Source of the DNA: Parcubacteria group bacterium Greene0416_36
Lineage (GTDB): Bacteria > Patescibacteriota > Patescibacteriia > VMEV01
Length of the DNA stretch: 64,000 nt
Direction of reading: 5' to 3'
NCBI GenBank assembly: GCA_007375725.1
Contig: VMEV01000004.1
Location: forward strand, 5,021-69,020
Shown here: one piece after another, positions 3,907 through 61,790 of the stretch
Position numbering within the stretch: the first letter of the stretch is position 1
Layout: each line of letters begins with the position of its first letter
Program-made: the position numbers and the translations under genes
Notes under the pieces: model-generated
What the model was told of the DNA's origin: nothing
What the model saw: only the letters and a program-made list of their open reading frames with translations
The model's database searches: none

Positions 3907-3995
3907 AACAACAAATCCCTCCCCAACCCTCCCTTTGACAAGGGAAGGCGCAGTTACCTCCCCCTTGTCAAAGGGGGACTGAGGGGGATTTGTTG
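3907..3995 (+). repeat. composite double-hairpin palindromic repeat (TTGACAAGGG family), copy 1
   Basis: CAACAAATCCCTCCCCAA-CCCTCCCTTTGACAAGGGAAGG-spacer-CCCCCTTGTCAAAGGGGGA-CTGAGGGGGATTTGTTG. An outer stem encloses two hairpins. Confidence 0.8.
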
Positions 3996-4139
3996 TTTGC
4001 ATTCCACCCCATCCATAAAGTACGATGGTATTGAAATTAACATAATTAGCACTAAGATGAGATTGCTTCGTCTTCGCTAAGACGTGAACCCTCACAATGA
4101 CAAGCACTAAAAAAACTATTTTCTAAAAACTCTAACCCT

Positions 4140-4724
4140 ATGAATTTAATCCCCACCGTCATCGAAAAAACCGCCAATGGCGAACGCGCGTACGACATCT
4201 ATTCGCGCCTCCTTAAGGACCGCATTATTTTCTTGGGCGGACAGGTCAATGACGCGGTGGCAAACACCATCGTGGCACAGTTCCTGTTTCTCGAAAGCCA
4301 GGACAAAGACAAAGATATCAAGCTCTACATCAACAGCCCCGGAGGATCGGTATCCGCGGGACTGGCGATCTATGACACCATGAATTATCTCAAATGCGAT
4401 GTCTCCACCATCTGCGTGGGACTCGCCGCTTCGATGGGAGCATTCTTGCTCTCCGCGGGTGCCAAGGGCAAACGATTTGCGCTTCCGCATGCCAAAGTCA
4501 TGATCCACCAAGTCATGGGCGGCGCCGAAGGCCAGGCCTCGGACATCAAGATCCAGGCTGAGGAAATCCTCCGCGTCAAAGCAGTGCTGAGTGATATCAT
4601 GGCCAAAAACACCGGCAAACCCCTCCGACAAATCGAAAAAGATACGGATCGTGATTATTATATGACGGCCGAGGACGCTCTGGCGTATGGCCTGATCGAT
4701 AAAGTGATTTCGAAGCAGACGTAA
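4140..4724 (+). CDS. clpP: ATP-dependent Clp protease proteolytic subunit
   Basis: 194 aa. Full-length ClpP signature region ([18 protein letters not shown], catalytic Ser context [17 protein letters not shown]). Confidence 0.95.
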
Positions 4725-4740
4725 ACACATCGCACCCGCA

Positions 4741-4785
4741 AAAAGCAGTAAGGGCGTATTGCAATACGCCCTTACTGCTTTTTGC
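4741..4785 (+). terminator. intrinsic terminator after clpP (GTAAGGGC palindrome family)
   Basis: AAAAGCAGTAAGGGCGTATTGCAATACGCCCTTACTGCTTTTTG: perfect palindrome flanked by an A-run and a T-run. Confidence 0.75.
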
Positions 4786-5039
4786 CCCCATATTTTAGCT
4801 ACTAGTAGCCAAAAGCTATTTATGTTATAGTCGATTTAGGATATTTCTATTGTAATATTGGCAACAAACTTCTCCCCTGTTAAGGGGAGACCGAGAGGGG
4901 TTCGGCTGTTCTCCATATCCTGTTTAATCAACCGTTAATGCTTGTTTTGGCACTATCAAAAAATACAAAAATATTTTATGATTCGATAATTTTCATATGA
5001 TTATTTTTTGAAACAAAAAGCCGGAACACGGATCTTAAT

Positions 5040-6557: not shown

Positions 6558-6577
6558 GAAGTAGGAGTCTCTAAAAA

Positions 6578-6657
6578 AAATCCCCCTTAATCCCCCTTTG
6601 ACAAGGGGGAGACTGCTCCCTCCCTTGTCAAAGGGAGGGTTGGGGAGGGATTTGTTG
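6578..6657 (-). repeat. composite double-hairpin palindromic repeat, copy 2 (inverted orientation)
   Basis: AAATCCCCCTTAATCCCCCTTTGACAAGGGGGAG-spacer-CTCCCTCCCTTGTCAAAGGGAGGGTTGGGGAGGGATTTGTTG. Lies immediately after the rny stop. Confidence 0.8.
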
Positions 6658-6768
6658 CTTGCATTACATCAAAACAATAATACATCCAACATTAACTAGG
6701 ACATAAGGAGAAAATGGAAGGGAAATTTTTCCTGAATCCTAGATCCTGAATCCTAAAGCCTAAAAAAT

Positions 6769-7122: not shown

Positions 7123-7166
7123 AAAACAAAAACTACAGTATTTCGAAATACTGTAGTTTTTGTTTT
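7123..7166 (+). terminator. intrinsic terminator after hup
   Basis: AAAACAAAAACTACAGTATTTCGAAATACTGTAGTTTTTGTTTT: 15-bp perfect stem with a T-run. Confidence 0.75.
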
Positions 7167-7188: not shown

Positions 7189-7275
7189 AACAACAAATCC
7201 CTCCCCACCCCTCCCTTTGACAAGGGAGGGCGCTTATGTCCCCCTTGTCAAAGGGGGATTAAGGGGGATTTGTTG
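7189..7275 (+). repeat. composite double-hairpin palindromic repeat, copy 3
   Basis: CAACAAATCCCTCCCCACCCCTCCCTTTGACAAGGGAGGG-CGCTTATGT-CCCCCTTGTCAAAGGGGGATTAAGGGGGATTTGTTG. Lies between the convergent gene ends of hup and the SpoIID-like gene. Confidence 0.8.
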
Positions 7276-7279
7276 CCCC

Positions 7280-10446: not shown

Positions 10447-10488
10447 AAAAAGTGTAGGGGCACAGCGCGCTGTGCCCCTACACTTTTT
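10447..10488. terminator. palindromic hairpin AAAAGTGTAGGGGCACAGCGCGCTGTGCCCCTACACTTTT (bidirectional terminator-like)
   Basis: 40-bp perfect palindrome flanked by A and T runs. An identical 40-mer recurs at 52307-52346 inside an ORF. Confidence 0.55.
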
Positions 10489-19052: not shown

Positions 19053-20477
19053 ATGTTCCTCTGCTCTTCCTGCAACAAAATATCCCAAAAATGGTCGGGA
19101 AGATGTCTCCTTTGCCAGGCTTGGGGAACTCTCGAGGCAAGGCCGGATATGGAAGAAAATGTCCATGGACGAAGGTCAAAAACAATGACATTTGAAAACA
19201 CGCCCAAACCCTTTCTGCTCTCAAGCGTCGAATCAACCGCAAATCAAAAACATAAAACCGGATTTGGAGAACTCGACGCAATACTAGGAGGGGGCCTGGC
19301 TATGGGCTCTCTTCTGCTTTTGGGCGGAGAGCCGGGAATCGGAAAGTCGACAATCGCCCTGCAGTTGGCGGACAGTATGGTGAAGACCAGAGATCCCCGC
19401 CTCCGAGGGGATGACGTTTATAAAATTCTCTACGTCTCCGGCGAAGAAAATCCGCATCAAATCAAAAATCGGGCGGAGCGATTAGGCGTGGACACAAACA
19501 GAATTCAAATTCTCGCCACCACTTGCATTGAAGAAATACTCGAAGTCGCGAAAATGGAAAAACCCATAATGGTGATACTGGATTCCATCCAAACCCTCTA
19601 CAGCCTAGATATTCCGTCCGAAATCGGATCGCCCAATCAAATCCGCGGAGTCGCGCAAAAAATCCTGGATACACTCAAACCGCTGGGCATCAGCGCCCTG
19701 ATCTTGGGACAAATCACCAAGGAGGGCAATTTGGCCGGACCCAAAATGCTCGAGCATTTGGTCGACGCGGTTCTGTATCTCGAGGGCGAAAAAGACTCGG
19801 CCATCCGCATTTTGCGCGTGCCCAAAAATCGCTTTGGGACCACCAGTGAGATACTGCTATTCAAGATGGACGAAAAAGGACTGCGGCCCATCAGTAATAT
19901 CAATGAAGAAGCGATATCCAATCTGGAAACCCAGGCCATCTCTGGATCCGCTTTCACCTTTATCTCAGACAGCGGGAAGAATTTTCTATTAGAGGTGCAG
20001 TCGCTGGTGACCAAAACTCTCTTCGGATACCCCCAGAGAAAAGCAATTGGCATTGATCCCAATCGCCTCCAAATTCTCTCGGCCGTGATGTCCAAATATA
20101 CCCGAACCCAGCTGCAGGGAGCCGATATCCACCTCTCGACCGCGGGAGCCATCAAATCCTATGACACAGCCTCGGATCTTGCCATTGCCGCGGCGATTCT
20201 CTCGTCGGCGCACAATATCCCATTGGACCGAAAAACACTGTTTATAGGGGAAATCGGGCTCGGAGGCGAGCTCAAAAACACGCGCAATCTGCAGTCAAAA
20301 CTCAAAGAAGCCGAAAAACTTGGATTCAATCAAGCTTGGATTCCCGAAACAGGAAAGCATACTCTCTCCGATAAATCACAACTAAAAATATACCCAATCC
20401 GAACAATCGCCGAGCTAGAAGCTCATCATTTTAAAAATAACAAAATACAAAGGGCCGTGGAGAATGGATTGGATTAA
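19053..20477 (+). CDS. radA: DNA repair protein RadA/Sms
   Basis: C4 zinc finger (CSSCNKIS...CLLCQAW), RecA-like ATPase (LLLLGGEPGIGKSTIALQ), KNRFG motif, C-terminal Lon-protease-like domain. ORF track starts at 19014; start chosen at the Met preceding the zinc finger. Confidence 0.85.
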   Translation: MFLCSSCNKISQKWSGRCLLCQAWGTLEARPDMEENVHGRRSKTMTFENTPKPFLLSSVESTANQKHKTGFGELDAILGGGLAMGSLLLLGGEPGIGKSTIALQLADSMVKTRDPRLRGDDVYKILYVSGEENPHQIKNRAERLGVDTNRIQILATTCIEEILEVAKMEKPIMVILDSIQTLYSLDIPSEIGSPNQIRGVAQKILDTLKPLGISALILGQITKEGNLAGPKMLEHLVDAVLYLEGEKDSAIRILRVPKNRFGTTSEILLFKMDEKGLRPISNINEEAISNLETQAISGSAFTFISDSGKNFLLEVQSLVTKTLFGYPQRKAIGIDPNRLQILSAVMSKYTRTQLQGADIHLSTAGAIKSYDTASDLAIAAAILSSAHNIPLDRKTLFIGEIGLGGELKNTRNLQSKLKEAEKLGFNQAWIPETGKHTLSDKSQLKIYPIRTIAELEAHHFKNNKIQRAVENGLD

Positions 20478-20563
20478 CAACAAATCCCCCTCAATCCCCC
20501 TTTGACAAGGGGGAAGTGGCTGTTGCTCCCTCCCTTGTCAAAGGGAGGGTTGGGGAGGGATTT
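20477..20563 (-). repeat. composite double-hairpin palindromic repeat, copy 4 (inverted orientation)
   Basis: CAACAAATCCCCCTCAATCCCCCTTTGACAAGGGGGAAG-spacer-CTCCCTCCCTTGTCAAAGGGAGGGTTGGGGAGGGATTT directly after the radA stop. Confidence 0.8.
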
Positions 20564-20589
20564 ACTTTACAAAACAGATCGAATCTGAT

Positions 20590-37961: not shown

Positions 37962-38028
37962 AAAATATATTATTTCACTGCGATTCTTTCTTTAACACTA
38001 GCCAAAAACCAAGCAAATATCAAAAGAA

Positions 38029-38106
38029 ATCCCTCCCAAACCCTCCCTTTGACAAGGGAGGGAGTTATCTCCCCCTTGTCAAAGGGGGACTAAGGGGGAT
38101 TTGTTG
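38029..38106 (+). repeat. composite double-hairpin palindromic repeat, copy 5
   Basis: AAATCCCTCCCAAACCCTCCCTTTGACAAGGGAGGGAGTTATCTCCCCCTTGTCAAAGGGGGACTAAGGGGGATTTGTTG in the divergent region between polA and the 38145 gene. Confidence 0.8.
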
Positions 38107-38144
38107 CTTTCACTCCACTCATTAAAATTTATAACTTCTAATTT

Positions 38145-39584: not shown

Positions 39585-40334
39585 ATGACTAATTCTGAAA
39601 GAGAACAGAAACTAAATTTCTGGGATCTCATTGCCTCCATATTCTGGCTCCTGATGGAGTCTTTCTGGATGATGCAGTGGAATACGATGGCCCAATGGAT
39701 GATTCCATTTGCCATCATCACCGGACTATACACGTTCCGATACATCCAAAGAACCATCGCCGCTTTCTTCTCGAGTCTGACCATGTTCTTATGGGTCACA
39801 AGAGCTGCTTTTTGGGTGGTCTCCGACATCAACAAAATCATGCCCCTAGAAATAGTAGCCAAAGTACTATTCGGGATAGGAACCATCACGCTCGTGGTCC
39901 TTATCCTTACAAATTCCTTAGAGCATTTCTCCCGCTTCAAAGGAACCAGCCACAATGATCAATCGCATAAACTTAATCTCGCCGAGCAAAGCGGTTCCGT
40001 GGTGTGGTTTCTAATGGATGGACTCTGGCTCATGAAATTGACATTCTGGGCGTACATCCTAATCATCCCCGCACTCGTCCTTAATTTGACCATCTTTCGT
40101 TATACCGAAAGAAAAGCCTCTGGCATGATAGTAACCACAATCATCAACTTGTGGCTGCTCTTCGCCATCAGCTGGATGATTTCTGACCTGGGAGGCATCA
40201 CGGTATTTTACACAGTCTCTCAAGTTTGTTTCGGATGTATGGGTGTGTCTATTATCGCTCTAATCATCAGCCTCAAACCCGCCACACAAAGCAATCAAAT
40301 TTCCAACCCCGAAATAGCCAAAGGTTTTATTTAG
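39585..40334 (+). CDS. hypothetical polytopic membrane protein
   Basis: 249 aa, about 7 TM helices, Trp-rich; no motif recognised. Confidence 0.4.
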   Translation: MTNSEREQKLNFWDLIASIFWLLMESFWMMQWNTMAQWMIPFAIITGLYTFRYIQRTIAAFFSSLTMFLWVTRAAFWVVSDINKIMPLEIVAKVLFGIGTITLVVLILTNSLEHFSRFKGTSHNDQSHKLNLAEQSGSVVWFLMDGLWLMKLTFWAYILIIPALVLNLTIFRYTERKASGMIVTTIINLWLLFAISWMISDLGGITVFYTVSQVCFGCMGVSIIALIISLKPATQSNQISNPEIAKGFI

Positions 40335-40400: not shown

Positions 40401-40488
40401 ACAACAAATCCCCCTCAGTCCCCCTTTGACAAGGGGGAGGTAACAGCCCCCTCCCTTGTCAAAGGGAGGGTTGGGGAGGGATTTGTTG
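40401..40488 (-). repeat. composite double-hairpin palindromic repeat, copy 6 (inverted orientation)
   Basis: CAACAAATCCCCCTCAGTCCCCCTTTGACAAGGGGGAGG-TAACAGCC-CCCTCCCTTGTCAAAGGGAGGGTTGGGGAGGGATTTGTTG at convergent gene ends. Confidence 0.8.
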
Positions 40489-40497
40489 TTATTTCCC

Positions 40498-40902
40498 CTA
40501 TACCAATTCCCCCGCCCCCGCTGCCAGGGCCAAGGCCACGATCAGATACGAAATAGACACCACGATAATACCGATAACCGCGTTCTTGATAATTTCCTTC
40601 GCCTCATCCACCTGCGACGAATTCCCAGCCGCCGTGATCCAACGGAAGCCGCCATATACTGAGTAGAGCACCGCCAAGGTGCCGATCACCCCCAAACACA
40701 ATTTCACAATGGCACCCACTCTGGTCGATAAAGTGGAAGTATCTCCTTTTGTACGCAAACCCGCTTGCTCTGAAGAAGCATCAAGCGTTTTCCCAATCGC
40801 TTGAATTCCGGTTTTGGGTTGGGCATAGGCAAACCCCATTGGCATCAAAAATACAGATGCCATCAAGATGAAACTCAAGAATATTTTTTTTAAAAAAGTC
40901 AT
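40498..40902 (-). CDS. TrbC/VirB2-like pilin paralog 1 (signal peptide + two-TM core)
   Basis: 134 aa. Signal peptide ending AYA-QP. Core LCLGVIGTLAVLYSVYGGFRWITAAGNSSQVDEAKEIIKNAVIGIIVVSISYLIV. Confidence 0.65.
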   Translation of the reverse strand: MTFLKKIFLSFILMASVFLMPMGFAYAQPKTGIQAIGKTLDASSEQAGLRTKGDTSTLSTRVGAIVKLCLGVIGTLAVLYSVYGGFRWITAAGNSSQVDEAKEIIKNAVIGIIVVSISYLIVALALAAGAGELV

Positions 40903-41424: not shown

Positions 41425-41853
41425 TCATTTGAATACCGTATCAATCGCACTCTTGAGCGCGAACGAGCTGATCGAATAGGCGGAAATCACGATAATAAGG
41501 CCGATCACGGCATTCTTAAGCCAAGCCTTAGCTTCGTCAATCTGAGCAGAATCACCTCCGGCAGTCATGTATTTCCATCCGGCCCAGAGGATGATCAAAG
41601 TCAGAACCGTCCCCAAAAAGGTAAGGATGATCTTGATGATATTGACCACCGTATCAATGAGATCCGCCTGGGTCTGGTCCTCACTAGTGGCGGCATATCC
41701 CGCCCCCGTCGCCACCTTCTCCGCGTCCAACACCGCCTGATCCAGAAAACGCTGAGCAGACACGGGAGCCAGAGGCAAAGCGACTAAGCCGAGACTGACT
41801 AGAAATAGAGATATTTTTCGAAACATAACAAAATAAATTAAATATACAGCCAA
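41425..41853 (-). CDS. TrbC/VirB2-like pilin paralog 3
   Basis: 142 aa. Core LGTVLTLIILWAGWKYMTAGGDSAQIDEAKAWLKNAVIGLIIVISAYSI. Confidence 0.65.
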   Translation of the reverse strand: MAVYLIYFVMFRKISLFLVSLGLVALPLAPVSAQRFLDQAVLDAEKVATGAGYAATSEDQTQADLIDTVVNIIKIILTFLGTVLTLIILWAGWKYMTAGGDSAQIDEAKAWLKNAVIGLIIVISAYSISSFALKSAIDTVFK

Positions 41854-41857
41854 ACAA

Positions 41858-41947
41858 CAAACCCATCCCCAACCCTTCCCTTAACAAGGAAGGGAGAACT
41901 CGCAAATGCCTCCCCTGTTAAAGGGAGGTTAGGTGGAGTTTGTTGCT
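41858..41947 (+). repeat. variant copy of the composite repeat (TTAACAAGGAAGGG subtype) inside the pilin array
   Basis: CAACAAACCCATCCCCAACCCTTCCCTTAACAAGGAAGGGAG...CCTCCCCTGTTAAAGGGAGGTTAGGTGGAGTTTGTTG. Same architecture with diverged hairpin sequences. A second copy of this subtype is at 61688-61790. Confidence 0.7.
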
Positions 41948-43353: not shown

Positions 43354-43398
43354 GTCATTGCGAGCCACCGCATTCTAGCGGTGGCGTGGCAATCTCAT
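43354..43398 (-). promoter_or_regulatory. conserved leader hairpin element (minus strand: ATGAGATTGCCACG-[GCCACCGC..GCGGTGGC]-TCGCAATGACA) directly upstream of pilin paralog 6
   Basis: Shares its flanks with the 46993-47035 element. The inner stem differs there but remains complementary (compensatory change). Confidence 0.4.
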
Positions 43399-43408
43399 GA
43401 ATAAACCC

Positions 43409-43840: not shown

Positions 43841-43845
43841 AAAAA

Positions 43846-44271: not shown

Positions 44272-44278
44272 ACGATTT

Positions 44279-44692: not shown

Positions 44693-44697
44693 AAAGT

Positions 44698-44934: not shown

Positions 44935-44937
44935 ACA

Positions 44938-45138: not shown

Positions 45139-45140
45139 AT

Positions 45141-45587
45141 TTATAAAGGTGTAATCAAAGCCGTGGTAAGACCCTTTGTGATGAAGCTTATCAAGACATA
45201 CGAACTGCCGCAAATCACAATCGCAATCACCGAGTTCACCAATATCCTCTTCCCTTCCCCCGCCTGATCCGAATTCCCCGCCGCCGTAGTCCACAAATAC
45301 CCTCCGTAGACCACATATCCCAATGCCACGGTACCAATGATGGACAGGGCAATGCCCATGTAGCGGCCGATTTGATTGACTACCACTAAACGAGCATCGG
45401 AGAGAACGTCTGTTCCTTCTTCTCTTGATATAGTCTCATCTAAATTTGTCTGCGATAAACCACCACCTTCATTGTCTGCTCCTAACATTTTATTGACAAG
45501 TGTAGGATTAAGTTGTGCATACAATAAAATAGGAAGACAAAATACTAAACTTACAGAAACAGATAAAATCGAAACAATTCGCTTCAT
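45141..45587 (-). CDS. TrbC/VirB2-like pilin paralog 10
   Basis: 148 aa. Core IALSIIGTVALGYVVYGGYLWTTAAGNSDQAGEGKRILVNSVIAIVICGSSYVLI. Confidence 0.65.
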   Translation of the reverse strand: MKRIVSILSVSVSLVFCLPILLYAQLNPTLVNKMLGADNEGGGLSQTNLDETISREEGTDVLSDARLVVVNQIGRYMGIALSIIGTVALGYVVYGGYLWTTAAGNSDQAGEGKRILVNSVIAIVICGSSYVLISFITKGLTTALITPL

Positions 45588-45593
45588 AAATTT

Positions 45594-45983
45594 CTATCCA
45601 GCTAAAGCCAATACTACAAAATTAGTCAGTGTATACGCACCCATTAAAATCACCATCCCAATCACCGCGCTGGAGATAATTTCCTTGGACTCATCTATTT
45701 TCGCCTGATCGCCTTTTGCCGTGAGCCACAGAAATCCAGCATATACTACATAACCAAGAGCAATCACACCCAAAAACCCATAGATAACAGACAAAACCTG
45801 GCCGATATAGACGGCGGGGCTTTTGGCACCTTCTGCGGTTATCTCATATCCGGATTTCTCAGCAAATATGTTCAGTTTCCCAACAGGATCTGGGTTTTCG
45901 GCGGCCAATACCCAAAAAGGCAACATTAAAAATATTACACTCGATAAAAAAATAAAAGTTTTTTGAAAAAATGAGTGTCTCAT
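45594..45983 (-). CDS. TrbC/VirB2-like pilin paralog 11
   Basis: 129 aa. Core GFLGVIALGYVVYAGFLWLTAKGDQAKIDESKEIISSAVIGMVILMGAYTL. Confidence 0.65.
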   Translation of the reverse strand: MRHSFFQKTFIFLSSVIFLMLPFWVLAAENPDPVGKLNIFAEKSGYEITAEGAKSPAVYIGQVLSVIYGFLGVIALGYVVYAGFLWLTAKGDQAKIDESKEIISSAVIGMVILMGAYTLTNFVVLALAG

Positions 45984-45986
45984 AAT

Positions 45987-46409
45987 TTATTTAACTTCTA
46001 CACCCGTAATCACATTGGTACCCAGCTGACTGATCGCGAAATTGGCTAGGGAATAAGCCCCAAAAATAATCACAAGGCCGATACCCCCATACAATAAAAT
46101 CTTCTTGGCAGTATCAACCTTCGAGGAATCTCCCGCGGCCGTGAGATACAAAAATCCGGCATAAATGATAATAAGCAATGCAAAAATACCTAGGATACCA
46201 AGGATAGATTGGATAATACCTCCGGAATATTGAATGAAGGCTTCTTGTTCCACCTTGCCTCCTCCTTCAAAGGCTTGCGAAGCCTTTCCTGTTTCCATTA
46301 GCCCCGTTGACAATGGATCAGCAGCCAAAATATTCGAACCCAAACCAAAAGACAGGACTCCGACTAGGATTCCCGACAATAAAATTTTATTTCGGAGAAA
46401 ATTTCGCAT
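45987..46409 (-). CDS. TrbC/VirB2-like pilin paralog 12
   Basis: 140 aa. Core LGILGIFALLIIIYAGFLYLTAAGDSSKVDTAKKILLYGGIGLVIIFGAYSL. Confidence 0.65.
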   Translation of the reverse strand: MRNFLRNKILLSGILVGVLSFGLGSNILAADPLSTGLMETGKASQAFEGGGKVEQEAFIQYSGGIIQSILGILGIFALLIIIYAGFLYLTAAGDSSKVDTAKKILLYGGIGLVIIFGAYSLANFAISQLGTNVITGVEVK

Positions 46410-46453
46410 ATAAAATCTTCGTTTGAAGAAGTAGAAAAAAGATATCCCTATTT

Positions 46454-46487
46454 GTCTGTAGGGGCGCAGCGCGCTGCGCCCCTACAG
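46454..46487. repeat. GTAGGGGC-family palindrome TCTGTAGGGGCGCAGCGCGCTGCGCCCCTACAGA in an intergenic gap of the pilin array
   Basis: Perfect 34-bp palindrome. Unlike other family members it lacks flanking A/T runs. Confidence 0.6.
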
Positions 46488-46583
46488 ACAACATGTCCTT
46501 TTTCTGCTTCTTCCTCCGAGCCCTTCAGCTCGGAGAGAAGAAAAGATTATAGATATAACAATTAGCTAGCTTATTGCTATCTC

Positions 46584-46982
46584 CTATCCTTGTAAACCTG
46601 TAGCAACGGTGAGTTGCTGGAGCACGAAAGTCGTGATCGCAAACGCGGACAAAATGATCACCAAACCGATAATACCGGCCTGAATGAGCTTTTTAGCTTC
46701 GTCTGTCTTATCGCTGGAACCTCCGGCAGTCATCCATTTGAAACCACCCATGAGGATGATCACCACGGCGACAGTACCCAAAAATCCCATGATAATGCGG
46801 ATCAAAGCGGCAATCGTTTCACGTGGATCGCGCTGTCCGAGTCCGGTATTTTTCTGAAAATTGATGCCGAATACGTCCTCAGCTGCGCCCACAGCCACGG
46901 GGACCGCCAGCATATTGAGAGACATAATCACCGACATGATTCCTACACCTAATTTTTTCATCATAATATCACCCCCTTTCAT
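46584..46982 (-). CDS. TrbC/VirB2-like pilin paralog 13
   Basis: 132 aa. Core MGFLGTVAVVIILMGGFKWMTAGGSSDKTDEAKKLIQAGIIGLVIILSAFAI. Confidence 0.65.
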   Translation of the reverse strand: MKGGDIMMKKLGVGIMSVIMSLNMLAVPVAVGAAEDVFGINFQKNTGLGQRDPRETIAALIRIIMGFLGTVAVVIILMGGFKWMTAGGSSDKTDEAKKLIQAGIIGLVIILSAFAITTFVLQQLTVATGLQG

Positions 46983-46992
46983 TTTTTATAGT

Positions 46993-47035
46993 GTCATTGA
47001 GAGTCCTGCGTTTTAGCAGGACGTGGCAATCTCAT
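46993..47035 (-). promoter_or_regulatory. conserved leader hairpin element (minus strand: ATGAGATTGCCACG-[TCCTGC..GCAGGA]-CTCTCAATGACA) upstream of pilin paralog 13
   Basis: Second copy of the 43354 element. The inner stem sequence differs but remains complementary. Confidence 0.4.
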
Positions 47036-47097
47036 ATAAAACATCAATACATTATTAGCCTAAGTATAGAAAAAAGACGAATTTTTGCAAATCTTTC

Positions 47098-47466
47098 TTA
47101 CTTGGCACCGATGCTGGCAAGCACATAACTGAGAATCGCGTAACTGCCAAACGCCACGATAATCCCGATCACGGCCCATACCAAGGTATCTATCCCCTTC
47201 TTCACCTTCTCCGAATTACCCCCCGAAGTCAAAAAATAAAACCCTCCGATGATAAAAAACACGAGCGACAATATACCCACAAGCCCCAGCATAGCCTGCA
47301 CTACTTGACCAACCAATTGGGGAACAGATGTTATACCCTCGAGAGGATTTGGCAATTGATTTTTTGGATCTGGTTTAGCTGTCATCAAAAGAGGCAATGA
47401 CCAGACAATCAAAGATGAATATAATATTCTAAAAAACGATTTCATATTTATAAATATCTTAATCAT
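47098..47466 (-). CDS. TrbC/VirB2-like pilin paralog 14
   Basis: 122 aa. Core LGLVGILSLVFFIIGGFYFLTSGGNSEKVKKGIDTLVWAVIGIIVAFGSYAI. Confidence 0.6.
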   Translation of the reverse strand: MIKIFINMKSFFRILYSSLIVWSLPLLMTAKPDPKNQLPNPLEGITSVPQLVGQVVQAMLGLVGILSLVFFIIGGFYFLTSGGNSEKVKKGIDTLVWAVIGIIVAFGSYAILSYVLASIGAK

Positions 47467-49443: not shown

Positions 49444-49524
49444 CAACAAATCCCCCTTAGTCCCCCTTTGACAAGGGGGAAACAACGCCCTCCCTTGTCA
49501 AAGGGAGGGTTGGGGAGGGATTTA
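49444..49524 (-). repeat. composite double-hairpin palindromic repeat, copy 8 (inverted orientation)
   Basis: CAACAAATCCCCCTTAGTCCCCCTTTGACAAGGGGGAAACAACGCCCTCCCTTGTCAAAGGGAGGGTTGGGGAGGGATTT between galU and the SBP gene. Confidence 0.8.
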
Positions 49525-49528
49525 GTAG

Positions 49529-50502: not shown

Positions 50503-50542
50503 AAAAACGTAAGGGCACGGTGCACCGTGCCCTTACGTTTTT
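50503..50542. terminator. palindromic terminator AAAAACGTAAGGGCACGGTGCACCGTGCCCTTACGTTTTT at the 3' end of the 50533..51762 gene
   Basis: Perfect palindrome flanked by A and T runs. Identical core to the dnaN terminator at 62590-62631. The gene's TAA stop lies inside the GTAAGG arm. Confidence 0.65.
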
Positions 50543-51762
50543 GAGGTCATGCCCAATCCATACACCACCCAAAACAAAACCGCCAAATCATTTTTGAAAT
50601 ACGCCACATCGACCATCCCGTGGGCCAATAAAACAAGCATCATGATAAAAACAGGGAGGATAAATGGACTCTTTTCGGCACGAATAGATGGCCAGCAAAA
50701 AACACAAAAAAAGACGACCAGCAAAATAAAAGAAACCATGCCCAAGAGGCCCATCTCAATCCAAAAATTAAAAAATAACTGATGGGGGTAGAGTAAAATT
50801 TCTGTATGCTCGGGGAGTTTGTATTTTTCATAATTACGGGAAAAGCCTCCGAGACCAAAACCCTCAATCGGATGATCGGCAATCATCTTCCAAGAGCCGA
50901 TCCACAATTTATGACGCACATCCGTGGACGGATCCACCGATATCCGCGCTCCCGCAAAAACAAGAAACACAATCAAAGCCGGAATGAATAGAAAATAATT
51001 TTTTGAAAAACGATTTTTTTCACGCATCAAAATAAATGCACCCAGAGAACACATCCCCGCCATCAAGGCCAATGCTCCGCCGTCAGAACCCGATAAAAAA
51101 AGAGCAGCCGAAGTAAACGCAAGCACGGTTATTTTCCAGAAGCGATCCAAAAAAAACGAAGAAAACAAAGGGATGTTCCGGGCAAATAAAACAAGATAGG
51201 CTCCGAGAATCGGGGTGACGACGAGAGACAGAGCATTGGGATAGGGATAGAACGAAGTGATTCGCAGGTCTCCCTGATTCCACGGAGCGGGAATCCAGCT
51301 AAAGGCGTATTGCAAGAGTCCATACAGAGCCAAATAAAAAGACAAAATTCCGAGTGTAATAAACACTCCGCGAATATTTTTTTCGGTTCGAATCGTTTTT
51401 ATAAAAACCCAGAAAAACAAAATAGGCTCTATAAAATAGGCTTTCCATTGACCCAGGGCCGCGCGCAAATCCGGACTCAAAATCACAGCCACAGTTGCGG
51501 AAAGTAAAAATAGCAGGACCGGAAAGGTAAGGGCGTATTGCGATACGCCCTTACCTTTCCGGTCAAGTAGAAATCTTTCCCGAATCAAAAACACACAAAA
51601 TAAAACCAGAATCATCGACTCCAGGAGCGTCATGGGGATATTAAACATCGAGAAACGAATTTGGTATGCGGGCAAAAACAAGAGAATCAAATAAATGCCC
51701 CAGGAAATTTTTCGGGAGGAAAGATAAGCGAATAAAGATAGAAATAGGATGAGAATAAACAT
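50533..51762 (-). CDS. O-antigen-ligase-like polytopic membrane protein carrying an in-frame palindromic insertion
   Basis: 409 aa, at least 10 TM helices. Wzy_C-like segment (SGSDGGALALMAGMCSLGAFIL). Residues KGKGVSQYALTFP are encoded by the palindrome at 51521-51560. Confidence 0.5.
   Translation of the reverse strand: MFILILFLSLFAYLSSRKISWGIYLILLFLPAYQIRFSMFNIPMTLLESMILVLFCVFLIRERFLLDRKGKGVSQYALTFPVLLFLLSATVAVILSPDLRAALGQWKAYFIEPILFFWVFIKTIRTEKNIRGVFITLGILSFYLALYGLLQYAFSWIPAPWNQGDLRITSFYPYPNALSLVVTPILGAYLVLFARNIPLFSSFFLDRFWKITVLAFTSAALFLSGSDGGALALMAGMCSLGAFILMREKNRFSKNYFLFIPALIVFLVFAGARISVDPSTDVRHKLWIGSWKMIADHPIEGFGLGGFSRNYEKYKLPEHTEILLYPHQLFFNFWIEMGLLGMVSFILLVVFFCVFCWPSIRAEKSPFILPVFIMMLVLLAHGMVDVAYFKNDLAVLFWVVYGLGMTSKT
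51521..51560. repeat. GTAAGGGC-family palindrome inside the 50533..51762 ORF
   Basis: GGAAAGGTAAGGGCGTATTGCGATACGCCCTTACCTTTCC. Read in frame as KGKGVSQYALTFP without interrupting the ORF. Confidence 0.7.
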
Positions 51763-51842
51763 AAATCCCCCTCAATCCCCCTTTGACAAGGGGGAGGTCG
51801 CTACGCCCTCCCTTGTCAAAGGGAGGGTTGGGGAGGGATTTA
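51762..51842 (-). repeat. composite double-hairpin palindromic repeat, copy 9 (inverted orientation)
   Basis: AAATCCCCCTCAATCCCCCTTTGACAAGGGGGAGGTCGCTACGCCCTCCCTTGTCAAAGGGAGGGTTGGGGAGGGATTT. Provides the last codons and stop of the upstream ORF 51772..53208 and abuts the start codon of the 50533..51762 gene. Confidence 0.8.
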
Positions 51843-53208
51843 TTCGCCACACCCACCCCACTCCAAATAAAACCACCCCCGCCGGCACAAAATATGTCAG
51901 CAAAAATAGAGCCGACATAATCAAATAGGCCCCGAGATACTTTTCCTCCAAAAGCAAAAAAGGCAGAATAATCAAAGCGTACCAAGGTTGGACCCAGGTG
52001 GCCACCAGAAACAAAAAGAAAAAGAAAAATGCGGAGCCGAATAAATACGGATCTATTTTCCCGCGAATCATTCGAACAAAAATAACGATGGAAACGACAA
52101 TCCATAACCCCAAACACAAAACTCTCCATAGGTTAAAAGTCTCTGGAACCAGCCAAAATCCGATCAAAGATCCGGACCCAAAATAAAAAGGATAGTCCAT
52201 ACGACCAGCTTGAATCAAAACACTGGAGAGAAGAGCGGGCCAGTGATCCCAATCCCAGAATGGGGCCCAGGCCACGAGCGTTACAATGATTCCAGCTACC
52301 AGCGCCAAAAGTGTAGGGGCACAGCGCGCTGTGCCCCTACACTTTTGGCCCTCCCGCCACCACAAAAAAAACCAAGCCGGAATAAAAAATACGGCCCAAT
52401 ATTTTATCCAGAAAGCGATAGCCAAGAACACAAAAGAAAAAACAGTAAGGGCGTATTGCGATACGCCCTTACTGTTTTTTCTGGACAAAAAATAAAACGA
52501 AGCCAGGAGAAAAAATAAAAGAGCGGCTTCATTGTGACCACTAGAAATTCCTTCCAGGAGAATCAGAGGATTCCACAGAAACAAAACCAATGAACGGGAG
52601 GCTAATCCCGCTTTCTTTTCCAAAATCCGAAACAAAATCAATCCCGATCCCGCGATAAAAAAAATATTGGCCAGGCGAAATAAAAATAAATTAAGAGGCA
52701 GATCGGTTCCGGCAAGACGAGTAATCATCATCGAGAACGAAGTCCAAACCGGACCATATGGAGTGACTTGATCCCTCCAATTAGCAATCGTAGTCTCCAA
52801 AAAGGGATCGGATCTAAAAAAATTAAAATGATAAAGATATGGATTAAGCTCATATCCATTGCCAATCCGCGCGCTAAAAATATAATTATATAGATCTTGC
52901 GACAGAACCGGAGGAATCAAAATGAGAATAAAAGAAAACAAAAAAAATCCCGCCCAAATTATTTTTAAAAAAGCAGGAGCTTGATTTAAATTAGGATGAG
53001 CATTACCCAGCAGAGATTTCGCGAAAAAAATAAAACTAATACCAGCCAAAATCATCCAAAATAATAAAAGCCAGTAAGCAAGGCCTGATGAAGGAGGCGT
53101 GGTTCCCCCGGAAGTGAAGTTTAATAAGCCAATCAAAAAAAACGCTGAATACAAAACACAAAGATAAAACAGATACGGTTTAACTTTTAACAAAGAGTCA
53201 GTAAACAT
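51772..53208 (-). CDS. large polytopic membrane protein (GT-C-like glycosyltransferase fold, tentative) with two in-frame palindromic insertions
   Basis: 478 aa, about 13 TM helices. Insertion-derived peptides GQKCRGTARCAPTLL (52307-52346) and KNSKGVSQYALTV (52437-52480). C-terminal 24 codons are read from the composite repeat. Confidence 0.45.
   Translation of the reverse strand: MFTDSLLKVKPYLFYLCVLYSAFFLIGLLNFTSGGTTPPSSGLAYWLLLFWMILAGISFIFFAKSLLGNAHPNLNQAPAFLKIIWAGFFLFSFILILIPPVLSQDLYNYIFSARIGNGYELNPYLYHFNFFRSDPFLETTIANWRDQVTPYGPVWTSFSMMITRLAGTDLPLNLFLFRLANIFFIAGSGLILFRILEKKAGLASRSLVLFLWNPLILLEGISSGHNEAALLFFLLASFYFLSRKNSKGVSQYALTVFSFVFLAIAFWIKYWAVFFIPAWFFLWWREGQKCRGTARCAPTLLALVAGIIVTLVAWAPFWDWDHWPALLSSVLIQAGRMDYPFYFGSGSLIGFWLVPETFNLWRVLCLGLWIVVSIVIFVRMIRGKIDPYLFGSAFFFFFLFLVATWVQPWYALIILPFLLLEEKYLGAYLIMSALFLLTYFVPAGVVLFGVGWVWRINPSPTLPLTREGVATSPLSKGD
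52307..52346. repeat. GTAGGGGC-family palindrome inside ORF 51772..53208 (identical to the intergenic copy at 10447-10488)
   Basis: AAAAGTGTAGGGGCACAGCGCGCTGTGCCCCTACACTTTT, translated in frame as KCRGTARCAPTLL. Confidence 0.7.
52437..52480. repeat. GTAAGGGC-family palindrome inside ORF 51772..53208
   Basis: AAAACAGTAAGGGCGTATTGCGATACGCCCTTACTGTTTTTT, translated in frame as KGVSQYALT. Same core as the 51521-51560 copy and the clpP terminator. Confidence 0.7.
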
Positions 53209-58889: not shown

Positions 58890-60362
58890 TTATTTTCCAA
58901 TCTTATGATATTCAATGGCTGAATAAAATAATTTCTCATATTTTTTGGCCGGAATCTGCCATGAAAAAGATTCCCTCATGCCGCGGCCCACCAAAGAATT
59001 CCACAGGCTTTTGTCGCCATAAGCCACTAGAGCTCTTCGGATGCTGGAGAGAAAATCCGCCGAATCATAATTATAAAACACAAAACCATTCCCGCTTTGA
59101 TCCTCAGCCCCCATCTCAATGACCGTATCGGCAATGCCTCCCGTGGCTCGGGCGATGGGAACAGAACCATATCGGAGACTGATGAGTTGCCCCAGCCCGC
59201 AGGGCTCAAAACGGGAAGGCATCAAAAACATATCCGAACCCGCGTAGACCTTGGTGACATTGAGGGAATCAAATGCCAGATTCGCCGCCATTTTGGTGGA
59301 GAATTTTTTCATGGCTGAGCGAAGCATTTTCTCATAACGCTCTTCTCCGGCTCCAAAAACCACCAGCTGCAAATTTTCCGAGAGCAATTCTCCTAAAATT
59401 TCAAACAAAAGATCAAATCCCTTTTGTTCGGTTATGCGCGTGGCCATTGCCAAAAGCGGAATATCTCCCGAAACGGGAAGATTCATCATCTTTTGCAATT
59501 CAGCCTTATTTACGGCCTTGCTGCTCCAGTCACTGGAATTATATCGGGCAAAAAGGCCAGGGTCAGTGGCGGGATTATAATGTTCATAATCAATCCCGTT
59601 GAGAATTCCGGACAGACGGTTGCGGCGCCTCGACAGCATGCGGCTCAGTCCTTCTCCGGACTCCTCGGTCAGGATTTCATTGGCATAGGTTTCCGAAACC
59701 GTCGAGAGCGCATCGGCCCAAACAATCGCACGCCGTGCGAAATTAATCCGTTCCACCGCTCTTTTGTCCCCAAAACGTGGAAGTGGAGTGCGGCCCGCAT
59801 CCCGATTTTTTTTGTGAATATTCCACCAATTTTTTCCCATTTGAAAAGTAAGATTATGTATAGTAAAAACCGAGGCGATGGATCGTAATTTGTCGTCACT
59901 CTGTCCCTGGCCATGCAATAAGTAAGGGAGCAGTCCACAATGCCAGTCATTGCAGTGGACAATATCCACGCTCTCTTCCAAAAGCCGAATGAGTTCCAAG
60001 ACCGCGACATCAAAAACAAAAAAACGCTGACTATTATCCGAAGCGTTATAAATCGTGGGCCGAGTGGAAAAAAATTTAGGAACATCAATAAAATAAATCG
60101 TGACTCCCTCAAATTCCGAGACATAATAATCTACAAAAATTTGCTTGTTGCCAGGCAAGATACAAGGATGCTGGAGTTTCCACGAGGTAATAGAAGACGA
60201 TTCTTTATTGATCACGCCATATAAAGGGGTAATAGCAAACGCGCGGTGACCCAAAGCCTGCATGGCCCTAGGAAAGGAACGCCCGAAATCGCCCAGTCCT
60301 CCTGCTTTTGAAAAGGGGTCTATTTCAGGAAAAACACAGGCAATAGTAAGAATCTTTTTCAT
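58890..60362 (-). CDS. glgA: glycogen/starch synthase (GT5, GlgA-like)
   Basis: 490 aa; N-terminal KILTIACVFPEIDPFSKAGGLGDF matches the GlgA KxGGL ADP-glucose-binding signature; C-terminal GT-B domain. Confidence 0.8.
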   Translation of the reverse strand: MKKILTIACVFPEIDPFSKAGGLGDFGRSFPRAMQALGHRAFAITPLYGVINKESSSITSWKLQHPCILPGNKQIFVDYYVSEFEGVTIYFIDVPKFFSTRPTIYNASDNSQRFFVFDVAVLELIRLLEESVDIVHCNDWHCGLLPYLLHGQGQSDDKLRSIASVFTIHNLTFQMGKNWWNIHKKNRDAGRTPLPRFGDKRAVERINFARRAIVWADALSTVSETYANEILTEESGEGLSRMLSRRRNRLSGILNGIDYEHYNPATDPGLFARYNSSDWSSKAVNKAELQKMMNLPVSGDIPLLAMATRITEQKGFDLLFEILGELLSENLQLVVFGAGEERYEKMLRSAMKKFSTKMAANLAFDSLNVTKVYAGSDMFLMPSRFEPCGLGQLISLRYGSVPIARATGGIADTVIEMGAEDQSGNGFVFYNYDSADFLSSIRRALVAYGDKSLWNSLVGRGMRESFSWQIPAKKYEKLFYSAIEYHKIGK

Positions 60363-60862
60363 AAGTGACCTAGAGTTGAATCATTAGCGCAACAAATGGC
60401 CGCAGCTAAGGCGTCGGCAGCGTGATTGGGCGAAGGTATCTCCTTAGCCCCGAGCAAAATCTTCACCATAGCCCCTACCTGATCCTTTGACCCCCTTCCA
60501 TACCCGCAGACCGATTGTTTGATCTCGAGGGGAGTATATTCAAAAACCGGCACACTCTGCAAGGAGGCAGACAAAATACACACCCCTCTCGCCTGGCCGA
60601 CCAAAATTGCAGATTTGACATTTTTGCAAAAAAATAAATCTTCGACCGACACACGATCAGGCTGCCATTTTGCGAGACACAGGTTGAGTCCCGTATGGAT
60701 CTCTGAGAGGCGAAGACTAAAATCCTGCCGAGGATCCGTCTCGATACAGCCATACTCCAAAAGAGTATATTGATTGCCGGTATATTCAATCACTCCAAAT
60801 CCCGTATTGGCGAGTCCCGGATCTATCCCCATGACTTTTATTGCCCCTTTTGTATTCAGCAT
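60359..60862 (-). CDS. ruvC: crossover junction endodeoxyribonuclease RuvC
   Basis: 167 aa; VMGIDPGLANTGFGVIE start, catalytic acidic residues in the RNase-H-like fold, C-terminal PNHAADALAAAIC. Confidence 0.9.
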   Translation of the reverse strand: MLNTKGAIKVMGIDPGLANTGFGVIEYTGNQYTLLEYGCIETDPRQDFSLRLSEIHTGLNLCLAKWQPDRVSVEDLFFCKNVKSAILVGQARGVCILSASLQSVPVFEYTPLEIKQSVCGYGRGSKDQVGAMVKILLGAKEIPSPNHAADALAAAICCANDSTLGHL

Positions 60863-60871
60863 GTAAAAGAA

Positions 60872-61618
60872 TCAAGAAAAATCAACATTGATATACAAAT
60901 TGTCGACATCGTCCTCATTGTCCAAAGCCTCCAGCAATGCGCCGAGAGACTGCATCGCCGAAGGAGAAATCGTGATTTTCTCTTTGGCGATATATTCGAT
61001 ATTGAACTCTTTGATCGCGATTTTCTTTCCTTCCAGCGCCGCACGAAAGGAATTCATATCCTCAACCAGAACCGTAATTTTGACATGCGCCGCGCCGTCG
61101 ATCTCTAGGTATTCAATATTTTCCGCTCCGGCACCGATCAAAAACAACTCGCGGTCATCGGCGGACATGGAATCAAAAGCCGAAGTGAGCACCAAAGCAA
61201 CTCCTCGGCGCACAAACATCCATGATACGCTATTGGCCGCCGCCAAATTTCCGCTATTTTTACTCATGATGACCTTGAGATTAGTGAGAGTCCGATTGCG
61301 ATTATCGGTAATGGTCTCGACCAAAATCGCACTGCCTTCGGGTCCAAAAACTTCGTACATGACCCCTTCCATGACCGTTCCGTCATTCAGTTCTCCAGTT
61401 CCCTTCTTGATAGCCTTCTCGATCGTATCTTTGGGCATGCTCATGGCTTTTGCCTTATCGACCGCCATCCTCAATTTGAAATTAGTATCCAAATCTTTGC
61501 CCAATTCTTTGGCGGCCATAGTAATATTGCGGCTGAGTTTGGTGAAGAGCGAACTGCGCTTGGCATCCGCCGCGCCTTTTTTGACTTGTATATTGTGCCA
61601 TTTGGAATGTCCAGACAT
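60872..61618 (-). CDS. yebC: YebC/PmpR-family transcriptional regulator
   Basis: Start chosen at MSGHSKWHNIQVKKGAADAKR (canonical YebC N-terminus); track ORF extends 16 codons further upstream. Confidence 0.9.
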   Translation of the reverse strand: MSGHSKWHNIQVKKGAADAKRSSLFTKLSRNITMAAKELGKDLDTNFKLRMAVDKAKAMSMPKDTIEKAIKKGTGELNDGTVMEGVMYEVFGPEGSAILVETITDNRNRTLTNLKVIMSKNSGNLAAANSVSWMFVRRGVALVLTSAFDSMSADDRELFLIGAGAENIEYLEIDGAAHVKITVLVEDMNSFRAALEGKKIAIKEFNIEYIAKEKITISPSAMQSLGALLEALDNEDDVDNLYINVDFS

Positions 61619-61687
61619 ACAATTGAATCGCTTAATGAATACAAATGAACATACCAAAATTATCAAATTTAGCGTTTTTTTTCAATG

Positions 61688-61790
61688 GTAGAAAGCAACA
61701 AACCCATCCCCAGCCCTTCCCTTAACAAGGAAGGGGGAAACAGCCTCCCACCCCTGATCACAGGAAAGGTTAGAAAAAGATTTGTTGCTT
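61688..61790 (+). repeat. variant copy of the composite repeat (TTAACAAGGAAGGG subtype)
   Basis: GCAACAAACCCATCCCCAGCCCTTCCCTTAACAAGGAAGGGGGAAACAGCCTCCCACCCCTGATCACAGGAAAGGTTAGAAAAAGATTTGTTGC; related to the 41858 copy. Confidence 0.65.

Follow-up and report, generated by a model that had tools for sequence, protein, structure and literature searches.

Inverted pairs of triplex-hairpin repeats at gene boundaries of a Patescibacteria genome and their linkage to DUF559 nuclease genes

A 64,000-nt stretch of the genome of Parcubacteria group bacterium Greene0416_36 (contig VMEV01000004.1, positions 5,021 to 69,020; hereafter the window, with positions counted from its first letter) carries a structured repeat of about 85 bp that recurs between its genes. 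What kind of element is this, does it act as DNA or as RNA, and which protein, if any, is its partner? The initial annotation of the window left several answers side by side: a mobile repeat similar to repetitive extragenic palindromes (REP) or miniature inverted-repeat transposable elements (MITE), a terminator or insulator, or the target of some nucleic-acid-binding system. The repeat is composed of inverted pairs of triplex-hairpin motifs of the BoxC/PIT/TM type and represents a new sequence family of this known kind in an unexpected host group. Its copies are probably selfish arm pairs acting as DNA, similar to REP doublets (REPINs), with a small DUF559 nuclease as the cognate protein and with the window copies as gene-less derivatives.

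Site reading, a repeat census and an unfiltered covariance-model scan were combined to count the copies. The window contains eight canonical copies, two diverged copies and one truncated copy (Table 1), with about zero expected by chance; the density is about 1 per 6 kb, and all copies are located at gene boundaries. The hairpin pattern CCCTCCCTT-N4-AAGGGAGGG with up to 3 mismatches has 11 matches in the window versus 0.04 expected from shuffles, and the outer motif CAACAAATCCC has 12 versus 3.2 expected. The covariance model detects 16 strong arms (E 1e-7 to 1e-5), which form 8 elements. The element thus recurs in both orientations as originally reported, and the diverged variants and the fragment listed with it were found again. 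The TTAACA-type variants c7 and c10 were recognized by eye and in the alignment, and both belong to repeat-census family D4, while the fragment is detected by the model as a solitary arm (4871-4902, E 0.021). The gene contexts given earlier (rny, radA, hup, polA and a Wzy-like gene) are correct, as is the description of one copy (c9) as encoding the final 24 codons of a gene together with its stop. Since two independent Logan assemblies (SRR8438314 and SRR8863435) carry c2 and c5, with contigs ending inside the repeat, the copies are real genomic repeats and not an artefact of one assembly.

Each canonical copy (8/8) includes one type-1 and one type-2 arm, inverted around a spacer of 7-13 nt. 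The type-1 arm is AAATCCCTCCCCAA-CCCTCCCTT-TGAC-AAGGGAGGG, in which the core after AAATCCCTCCCCAA begins with CCCTCCC, and the type-2 arm is AAATCCCCCTYART-CCCCCTT-TGAC-AAGGGGG(A). The hairpins of 9 and 7-8 bp and the TTGACA loop agree with the initial description. The spacers do vary among the copies as had been stated, but they are interrelated by insertions and deletions and are not unrelated sequences. In copies aligned in one orientation, similarity extends from about AAA(C/G)CAACAAATCCC to GGGATTTGTTG(Y)TT, and 5 of the 10 aligned copies lack the CAACAA extension at one end. A-rich and T-rich runs border the elements, whose predicted folds are very stable (-43 to -58 kcal/mol).

On the G-rich strand, each arm follows a three-block plan: a C-rich stem, a 4-nt loop (TGAC or GTCA), a G-rich stem, a 3-nt loop and a mirror G block; the other strand starts with AATCCCYCC.. 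followed by the hairpin. All eight type-1 arms fit CCCYCCCTT-GTCA-AAGGGRGGG-NNN-GGGRGGGAT, a perfect 9-position mirror. Their sequence is CCCTCCCTT-GTCA-AAGGGAGGG-TTG-GGGAGGGAT, where GGGAGGGAT exactly mirrors the first G block, and that of the type-2 arms (8/8) is TCCCCCTT-GTCA-AAGGGGGA-CTR-AGGGGGAT. The outer segment matches the hairpin of its own arm (TCCCTCCC with CCCTCCC, TCCCCC with CCCCC), and every arm of the window tracks its own hairpin despite the T:G or C:A mismatch that this creates in the presumed outer stem. The two outer segments are only imperfectly complementary, with a T/C asymmetry, because each of them mirrors its own hairpin in the manner of a third strand.

The same features were initially interpreted as a Y-shaped or cloverleaf fold closed by the outer stem, with G-U wobbles on one of the strands. 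At best, this fold competes with several others, the outer stem being the third strand of each arm, and the wobble explanation of the asymmetry is not supported. The occurrence of single, tail-to-tail paired and tandem arms in other phyla also speaks against a simple cloverleaf. The long arm-to-arm hairpin preferred by RNAfold was rejected as the conserved structure, since each hairpin stays self-complementary where the arms differ.

Base-pair covariation was evaluated in larger sets of arms. A set of 35 arms collected by hand shows 100% pairing in the main hairpin, where three positions have compensatory changes. With a covariance model, 148 arms, of which 100 are distinct, were retrieved from the window together with 80 further loci. 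In the 100 distinct arms (about 1300 base-pair cells), 95.1% of the cells are paired versus 45-64% in slid controls, and 223 cells are compensatory versus 66.7+-5.6 in shuffles, with compensation at 11 of 14 pairs; these values come from a model-fitted alignment. Hardly any G-U pairs or one-sided changes occur across these cells, the covariation being almost purely Watson-Crick.

The third strand was assessed by a model-free regular expression in 84 distinct arms. Triad 1 is C.C-G in 54 arms and T.T-A in 24, with 6 exceptions (canonical in 78/84), and triad 2 is canonical in 76/84. In the model alignment, columns 8 and 81 pair as U-A in 78 cases and as C-G in 16; 20 cells are changed on both sides versus 3.2+-1.5 in shuffles, and 0 of 500 shuffles reach the observed covariation. 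Opposite an inverted base pair (G-C), the third strand has A in 42-43 arms. Independent switches of the third strand are few (at least three by inspection), since the arm sequences are related. Covariation, proposed earlier as a check, is therefore present in both hairpins and in the third strand as compared with shuffles and slid controls. Both hairpins and the mirror segment are under selection, and this three-way covariation is, as far as could be found, the first comparative evidence of selection on a triplex-type mirror relation.

Does the element act as RNA in one orientation, as had been suggested? Of the copies with unambiguous transcription from one side, two have each orientation, and two further copies (c1 and c5) lie between divergent genes. 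The GC skew is negative throughout, so the whole window represents one replichore, on which the orientations of the copies are 3:5 (canonical) or 5:5 (including variants). The near-absence of G-U pairs would follow from a need for both strands to fold or from a structure formed in DNA, and it would be unusual for a one-strand RNA. An Rfam scan of the window (gathering and E-value thresholds) yielded two tRNAs and otherwise chance matches of the generic hairpin or miRNA-like kind, with no repeat family. The absence of orientation bias and the almost purely Watson-Crick covariation leave a one-orientation RNA function unsupported.

The terminator or insulator function did not fare better. A consensus terminator scan leaves the canonical copies unflagged, and the related E. 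coli PIT elements have no promoter or terminator activity according to earlier work cited in PMC4666352. A promoter role of the TTGACA loop was rejected: both boxes point inward, and the number of promoter-like sites is 34 versus 27.8+-5.1 expected.

The three-block plan is characteristic of the BoxC/PIT/TM intrastrand-triplex repeats, which have been catalogued since the 1990s without known function, origin or associated gene. Descriptions of BoxC/PIT repeats are reportedly also due to Bachellier (1990s) and Hoyne & Maher (2000). For E. coli, the TMECO pattern CCCTCNCCC-N3-6-GGGNGAGGG-N3-GGGNGAGGG was defined by Holder et al. (2015; PMC4666352), who counted 23 copies in MG1655 and 3610 copies in 262 proteobacterial genomes. 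According to this work, TMECO copies are always intergenic and without strand bias, their loops are less conserved than their stems, and five inverted pairs each combine type A with type B. Single-stranded TMECO forms a stable triplex in vitro, and pyrimidine-type triplexes are possible in RNA. TM repeats are associated with local genome variability; no mobility gene was found nearby.

The window repeat shares the architecture of these repeats. It comprises a pyrimidine stem, a complementary purine stem and a mirror purine block (C-stem, loop, G-stem, 3-nt loop, mirror G-stem), within the stem (6-15 nt) and loop (1-6 nt) lengths that define this kind, and its third strand covaries with the duplex in isomorphic triads (T.A-T <-> C.G-C). 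As in TMECO, loops are less conserved than stems. Its copies are G/C-rich, intergenic and multiple, show no strand bias and occur as inverted pairs that always join two subtypes. The exact TMECO consensus has 0 matches in the window, and a literal search of the literature for the repeat sequence returned only irrelevant primer matches.

How far does this family extend? One genome per species was searched for exact matches to both 14-nt hairpin cores (28-nt core). The core was found in 34 DNA stretches of metagenome-assembled genomes (MAGs) from six or more phyla with a GC content of 0.32-0.67, assigned to Patescibacteria (several classes), Clostridia/Oscillospiraceae, beta- and gamma-proteobacteria, Margulisbacteria and Spirochaetales. 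All 34 stretches have the order AATCCCYC ... hairpin ... spacer ... hairpin ... GRGGGATT, and the nearest foreign copy belongs to a Patescibacteria MAG (L023). Overall, arms were found in Patescibacteria, Firmicutes, Proteobacteria, Margulisbacteria, Spirochaetes and Deinococcus. A scan of viral contigs for the double-hairpin core gave 0 matches and hence no sign of a phage vehicle.

Most copies outside the candidate phyla radiation (CPR) possess an additional hairpin between the outer segment and the main hairpin, i.e., inside triplex loop 2; its sequence is lineage-specific and its pairing is kept. In type-2 arms of Firmicute loci (e.g., L008 6278-6326, L025 2550-2598, L035 5423-5473), this hairpin has a conserved T.C mismatch at the second pair (GTCA...TGCC), and type-1 arms have T-A at this pair (GTCA...TGAC). 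The mismatch accounts for 32 cells counted as unpaired at one position of the covariation count.

Single arms or whole elements may also be amplified in tandem (L034 3717-4101; L019 4191-4550; L043/L046/L048 with a period of about 50; L025 5700-6250). In one example, a unit of hairpin 1 and a conserved 30-nt spacer is repeated eight times head-to-tail and capped by a single hairpin 2; in another, elements alternate with a 60-nt linker that is likewise conserved. These arrays superficially resemble repeat-spacer arrays, but their spacers are conserved. In beta-proteobacterial MAGs (L005 3040-3060, L028 950-970 and neighbours), the palindrome GAGCAGCATGCTGCTC recurs directly beside the triplex-hairpin elements and could represent either another repeat family or a portion of the element in its local form.

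Clustering of the open reading frames (ORFs) of the 34 loci revealed a sole specific recurrent neighbour, a protein of about 120 aa encoded at 6/34 loci (Clostridia, Oscillospiraceae, Margulisbacteria and others). This protein belongs to DUF559 (PF04480; E 1e-24 to 1e-29) and contains a D..ExDG..H core with invariant D53, E64, D66 and H70; its profile matches PDB 3hrl (E 1e-20). DUF559 is a member of the Vsr-like PD-(D/E)xK clade (VSR/DUF559/DUF2726; PMC3424549), which is also home to the homing endonuclease I-Bth0305I. PADLOC and NCBIfam provided no informative name for the neighbour beyond DUF559. Other recurrent neighbours (TctC, ABC transporters, histidine kinases and acyl-CoA dehydrogenase) were rejected as partners, being ordinary abundant paralogues.

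The linkage was also examined in the reverse direction, in 80 metagenome loci selected solely for encoding a DUF559 relative. An arm is present within 300 nt of the DUF559 gene at E<=0.01 in 51 of the 80 loci. Within this distance, 124 arm matches occur in 72 kb (1.72/kb) versus 8 in 202 kb elsewhere (0.04/kb), a 43-fold difference, and most of the remaining loci have diverged arms seen by eye. When the exact TTGACAA core is required, only 5/80 loci are retrieved, because the arm loops are diverged there; detection needed the covariance model. The arms are thus specifically associated with DUF559 nuclease genes, and the initial guess of a target of an unknown nucleic-acid-binding system fits this observation.

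The association is tight and orientation-specific. On the 5' side of the Firmicute units, whose geometry is fixed, hairpin 2 and the extra hairpin are followed by GGAGGGATT located 4-5 nt ahead of the ATG, so that the outer segment serves as the Shine-Dalgarno sequence of the DUF559 gene; the same segment precedes the ATG of the Wzy_C gene at c9 in the window. On the 3' side, AATCCCTC overlaps the final codons of the gene and is followed by the extra hairpin and then by hairpin 1. In Margulisbacteria (L014) and CPR Shapirobacteria (L116), the DUF559 gene occupies the variable-spacer slot between hairpin 1 and hairpin 2, an arrangement equal to that of the gene-less copies of the window, and a DUF559 gene on a Deinococcus plasmid is likewise bracketed by arms. 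The annotation 'DUF559 domain-containing protein' is 14-fold enriched among predicted programmed-inversion targets, an effect that inverted arms on either side of the gene would have. A connection of DUF559 or YcjD with these repeats was not found in any paper, and the link appears to be undescribed so far.

E. coli ycjD, a DUF559 gene, fits the same pattern. The C-terminus of the K-12 protein (..NRRSPSP and stop) is encoded inside a decayed arm, and it is paralleled by the protein of locus L016, which ends with ..LRRSPSL and takes its stop codon from the loop TGA. TMECO #9 is located 168 nt downstream of ycjD (MG1655, NC_000913.3, 1350200-1352400; L129). A partial duplicate of the ycjD 3' end also lies downstream of ycjD, followed by TMECO #9. 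The gene is accessory: 3378 of 5426 complete E. coli genomes carry it, and in the rest the eefRABCD efflux operon occupies the same fabI-sapF site. Published TMECO counts are 19-30 in ycjD-positive A/B1 strains, 1-2 in ycjD-negative B2 strains and 11 in O157; this contrast is suggestive, but it is confounded by phylogeny and was not used as evidence.

How could such copies be formed? According to the preferred explanation, the arms would fold on either strand when DNA is single-stranded or supercoiled, and the DUF559 nuclease would recognize (cut or bind) the folded arm. In gene-carrying versions, the DUF559 gene is bracketed by both arms. The window copies look gene-less and REPIN-like, as the window has no DUF559 gene, and could have accumulated in intergenic DNA. 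Presumably, a DUF559 enzyme from another part of the genome would process or copy them in trans, or they would be remnants left after gene loss. New copies could arise through nicking or cleavage with subsequent break-induced repair or template switching, by analogy with REPINs and their REP-associated tyrosine transposases (RAYTs). We infer that DUF559 cuts or binds the arms and thereby drives their copying. An RNA-level role, such as Shine-Dalgarno/anti-Shine-Dalgarno pairing or the formation of mRNA ends, may be a secondary use. Of the functions initially proposed, that of a dispersed REP/MITE-like structured repeat at gene boundaries is supported. More tentatively, BoxC/PIT/TM repeats and DUF559 together might constitute an unrecognized nuclease-repeat system of many phyla, comparable to REPIN-RAYT, in which a Vsr-like PD-(D/E)xK enzyme recognizes folded DNA (a hairpin with a third strand) and creates, moves or resolves the repeats.

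A number of observations weigh against this explanation. No DUF559 gene is present within the window, no target-site duplication exists at any fixed offset at the borders of its eight canonical copies, and no presence/absence polymorphism of the copies was found. In look-ups of exact proteins for such polymorphism, HU and ClpP gave no records, and RNase Y and PolA gave only short Logan contigs ending in repeats. Mobility in the window is accordingly deduced solely from the number of copies and the variety of their contexts. The arms of gut Firmicute loci are concentrated at the DUF559 gene and rare elsewhere, and in these lineages could be mainly regulatory or structural parts of a gene cassette. 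Homology between units ends sharply at the end of hairpin 1, possibly owing to repeat-induced metagenome chimeras, and chimeric contigs at repeats weaken the pattern of the same unit with different flanks. E. coli O157, represented at the ycjD site by O157:H7 SS17 (L130), lacks ycjD and has 11 TMECO copies, so that arms persist without the gene. No biochemical activity of a stand-alone DUF559 protein on such structures was found in the literature; Caulobacter VsrA, the one member studied, has been proposed to act on T:G mismatches. TMECO formed no stable triplex in duplex DNA or in vivo (PMC4666352).

The main rival explanation, which is rather unlikely, regards the elements as passive non-B-DNA repeats without a dedicated enzyme. 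Such repeats would spread and decay by slippage, recombination and repair, as Holder et al. (PMC4666352) proposed for TMECO, and DUF559 genes would only be located in or beside them, either using the arms, e.g., as signals for expression or stability of the gene cassette, or hitch-hiking with them. This agrees with the published view of BoxC/TM repeats as linked to genome instability with no associated mobility gene, with the retention of 11 copies by O157, with the supply of a Shine-Dalgarno sequence and C-terminal codons to the DUF559 gene by the arms, and with the tandem arm amplifications, which resemble slippage products. However, slippage leaves unexplained the near-identical two-arm units at eight or more unrelated intergenic sites in 64 kb, the conservation of a 28-nt core across phyla and the reciprocal, orientation-specific linkage to one protein family. 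Alternatively, the copies could be cis-acting RNA elements kept by the host, such as mRNA-stabilizing 3' structures, bidirectional terminators or translational controllers; this possibility is improbable. An example would be the pairing of the Shine-Dalgarno-like GGAGGGAUU with AAUCCCUCC, a symmetric form of the RNA idea of the initial annotation. The location of copies directly after stop codons or before start codons, the stability of the predicted folds, the flanking A-rich and T-rich runs and the feasibility of pyrimidine-type triplexes in RNA (PMC4666352) could be explained in this way. The absence of transcription-orientation bias, with two copies between divergent genes, is not, nor are the scarcity of G-U pairs and one-sided changes, the lack of an Rfam family, the unflagged canonical copies in the terminator scan and the inactivity of E. 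coli PIT elements as promoters or terminators.

Transposase-based explanations have far less weight. A classical MITE, in which an insertion sequence (IS) with long terminal inverted repeats has suffered an internal deletion and depends on a DDE-type transposase from another locus, is very improbable. The long imperfect terminal inverted repeats, the size of about 85 bp and the multiple intergenic copies would suit it, but the inverted ends are not accompanied by a target-site duplication at a fixed offset. No transposase recurs near the arms in the 34 and 80 loci, where ordinary transporters and kinases make up the rest of the recurrent neighbours. Moreover, arms occur singly, head-to-head, tail-to-tail and in tandem, and the conservation lies in the internal structure and not in the end sequence alone. 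Least probable of all is an ordinary REP/REPIN family mobilized by a RAYT (Y1 HUH transposase). Two inverted palindromic units with a spacer do represent the REPIN architecture (PMC3116915), and the window also holds REP-like palindromes of the GTAG type. The latter, however, form a family of their own at other positions; the arms start with AATCCC and lack a GTAG/CGTC head, the flanked gene is DUF559, and no Y1 transposase (PF01797) recurs near the arms in the 34 loci, of whose ORFs not every one was scanned against Pfam. Integron attC sites were also considered and, by inspection, rejected: the ends ..GGGATTTGTTGC/T.. do not fit GTTRRRY (R''/R' = RYYYAAC ... GTTRRRY), and the copies are dispersed. 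No integrase is present among the recurrent arm neighbours or the Pfam-scanned window ORFs, which do not include every ORF.

The positions of the copies and of the second palindrome family are listed in Table 1.

Table 1. Copies of the triplex-hairpin repeat and GTAG-type palindromes in the 64-kb window
Feature	Position	Strand	Structure	Context
c1	3907..3997	+	type-1 arm 3914-3947 (+), spacer, type-2 arm 3959-3990 (-); single mismatch in hairpin 1 (GGGAAGG)	between divergent Wzz-like gene (2610..3359, -) and clpP (4140..4724, +)
Truncated copy	4867..4912	-	single TTAACA-type arm AACCCCTC-..-TCTCCCCTTAACAGGGGAGA beside leftover CAACAAAC end	downstream of clpP
c2	6575..6660	-	type-2 arm 6579-6610 (+), type-1 arm 6619-6652 (-)	begins 18 nt past rny stop codon; upstream of hup
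c3	7189..7277	+	type-1 arm 7196-7229 (+), type-2 arm 7239-7270 (-)	between convergent hup and SpoIID-domain gene
c4	20477..20566	-	type-2 arm 20483-20514 (+), type-1 arm 20529-20562 (-)	radA stop codon directly adjoining
c5	38024..38108	+	type-1 arm 38028-38061 (+), type-2 arm 38070-38101 (-)	between divergent polA and Wzy_C gene
c6	40401..40490	-	type-2 arm 40407-40438 (+), type-1 arm 40450-40483 (-)	between convergent genes, 39585..40334 (+) and pilin gene 40498..40902 (-)
c7	41852..41945	+	diverged variant, TTAACA/TGTTAA loop subtype	between two T4SS_pilin genes
c8	49444..49526	-	type-2 arm 49449-49480 (+), type-1 arm 49489-49522 (-)	between solute-binding-protein and nucleotidyl-transferase genes, both - strand
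c9	51762..51844	-	type-2 arm 51764-51795 (+), type-1 arm 51807-51840 (-)	overlaps final ~24 codons and stop of ORF 51772..53208 (-) (51772-51846); GAGGGGGATTT end (51760-51795 half), Shine-Dalgarno-like, abuts ATG of Wzy_C gene 50533..51762 (-)
c10	61693..61788	+	diverged variant; left arm TTAACA-type, right arm decayed	between yebC-like and dnaN genes
GTAG-type palindrome	3477-3502
GTAG-type palindrome	4748-4775
GTAG-type palindrome	10454-10481
GTAG-type palindrome	33565-33592
GTAG-type palindrome	46458-46485
GTAG-type palindrome	50509-50536
GTAG-type palindrome	51527-51554
GTAG-type palindrome	52313-52340
GTAG-type palindrome	52445-52472
GTAG-type palindrome	62598-62625

The window has a GC content of 44.5% and encodes RNase Y, RadA, HU, PolA, DnaN and a long array of small T4SS_pilin paralogues. 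This array (40498-47466, - strand) comprises at least ten tandem genes of about 120-190 aa, three of which were tested and proved to be T4SS_pilin (PF18895) paralogues; c6 and c7 lie within it. The second repeat family, unrelated to the first, includes ten perfect palindromes GTA(G/A)GGGC-N8-14-GCCC(C/T)TAC with covarying inner stems, usually placed between an A-run and a T-run. They give 19 strand matches versus 0.06 expected, have GTAG or GTAA heads and resemble the GTAG-tagged REPs accompanying RAYT transposases (PMC3733652). In addition, a 20-bp perfect palindrome AAAACAAAAACTACAGTATT-TCGA-AATACTGTAGTTTTTGTTTT (7123-7166), similar to a bidirectional terminator, is located just past hup, 23 nt before c3.

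DUF559 is a large and widespread nuclease family of unknown function with a member in E. coli K-12. Its physical link with the arms turns two puzzles into one direct test in a model organism, the action of YcjD on TMECO DNA. If it exists, a nuclease-repeat system would explain both the origin of repeats in question for about 30 years and the function of DUF559, including E. coli YcjD. In the very small genomes of CPR/Patescibacteria, dense elements of this kind shape gene ends, Shine-Dalgarno sequences and assembly breakpoints.

Among known systems, REPINs with their RAYTs are similar in having short palindromic units arranged as inverted doublets with a spacer, dozens of intergenic gene-less copies and a cognate nuclease gene flanked by inverted units. 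The description of this system is said to be due in part to Nunvar (2010) and Ton-Hoang (2012). The doublet definition (inverted palindromic units, a spacer and many intergenic copies; Bertels & Rainey 2011, PMC3116915) applies to the window repeat. In contrast to REPIN-RAYT, the flanked gene here encodes a PD-(D/E)xK Vsr-like nuclease and not a Y1 HUH transposase, the arms have a mirror (triplex) segment and no GTAG/CGTC tag, and the arm core is common to many phyla, whereas REPINs are lineage-specific.

Vsr-like homing endonucleases, e.g., I-Bth0305I (Dassa 2009, PMC2677866; Taylor 2011, PMC3239194), belong to the same nuclease clade as DUF559 and are likewise selfish genes residing inside an associated sequence, as the DUF559 genes of L014 and L116 reside in the spacer of the element. 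Unlike the protein of about 120 aa encoded between structured repeats, they have about 266 aa with an extra DNA-binding domain and occupy introns or inteins of conserved genes; homing also leaves the dispersed gene-less copies of the window unexplained. IS200/IS605 elements and their PATE derivatives are comparable in their small size, in ends recognized as folded hairpins in single-stranded DNA and in the existence of gene-less derivatives. They differ by their Y1 transposase, by left and right ends that are not inverted repeats and by a strong lagging-strand orientation bias, which the window repeat lacks.

The BoxC/PIT/TM repeats are the closest relatives in structure. As compared with TMECO, the window family has CCCTCCCTT / TCCCCCTT stems and conserved TGAC/GTCA loops, and its copies in other phyla contain an extra covarying hairpin within triplex loop 2. 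TMECO was recorded in 262 proteobacterial genomes, whereas the hosts of this family include CPR/Patescibacteria and Firmicutes. Finally, published work found no gene associated with TMECO, while the arms of this family bracket DUF559.

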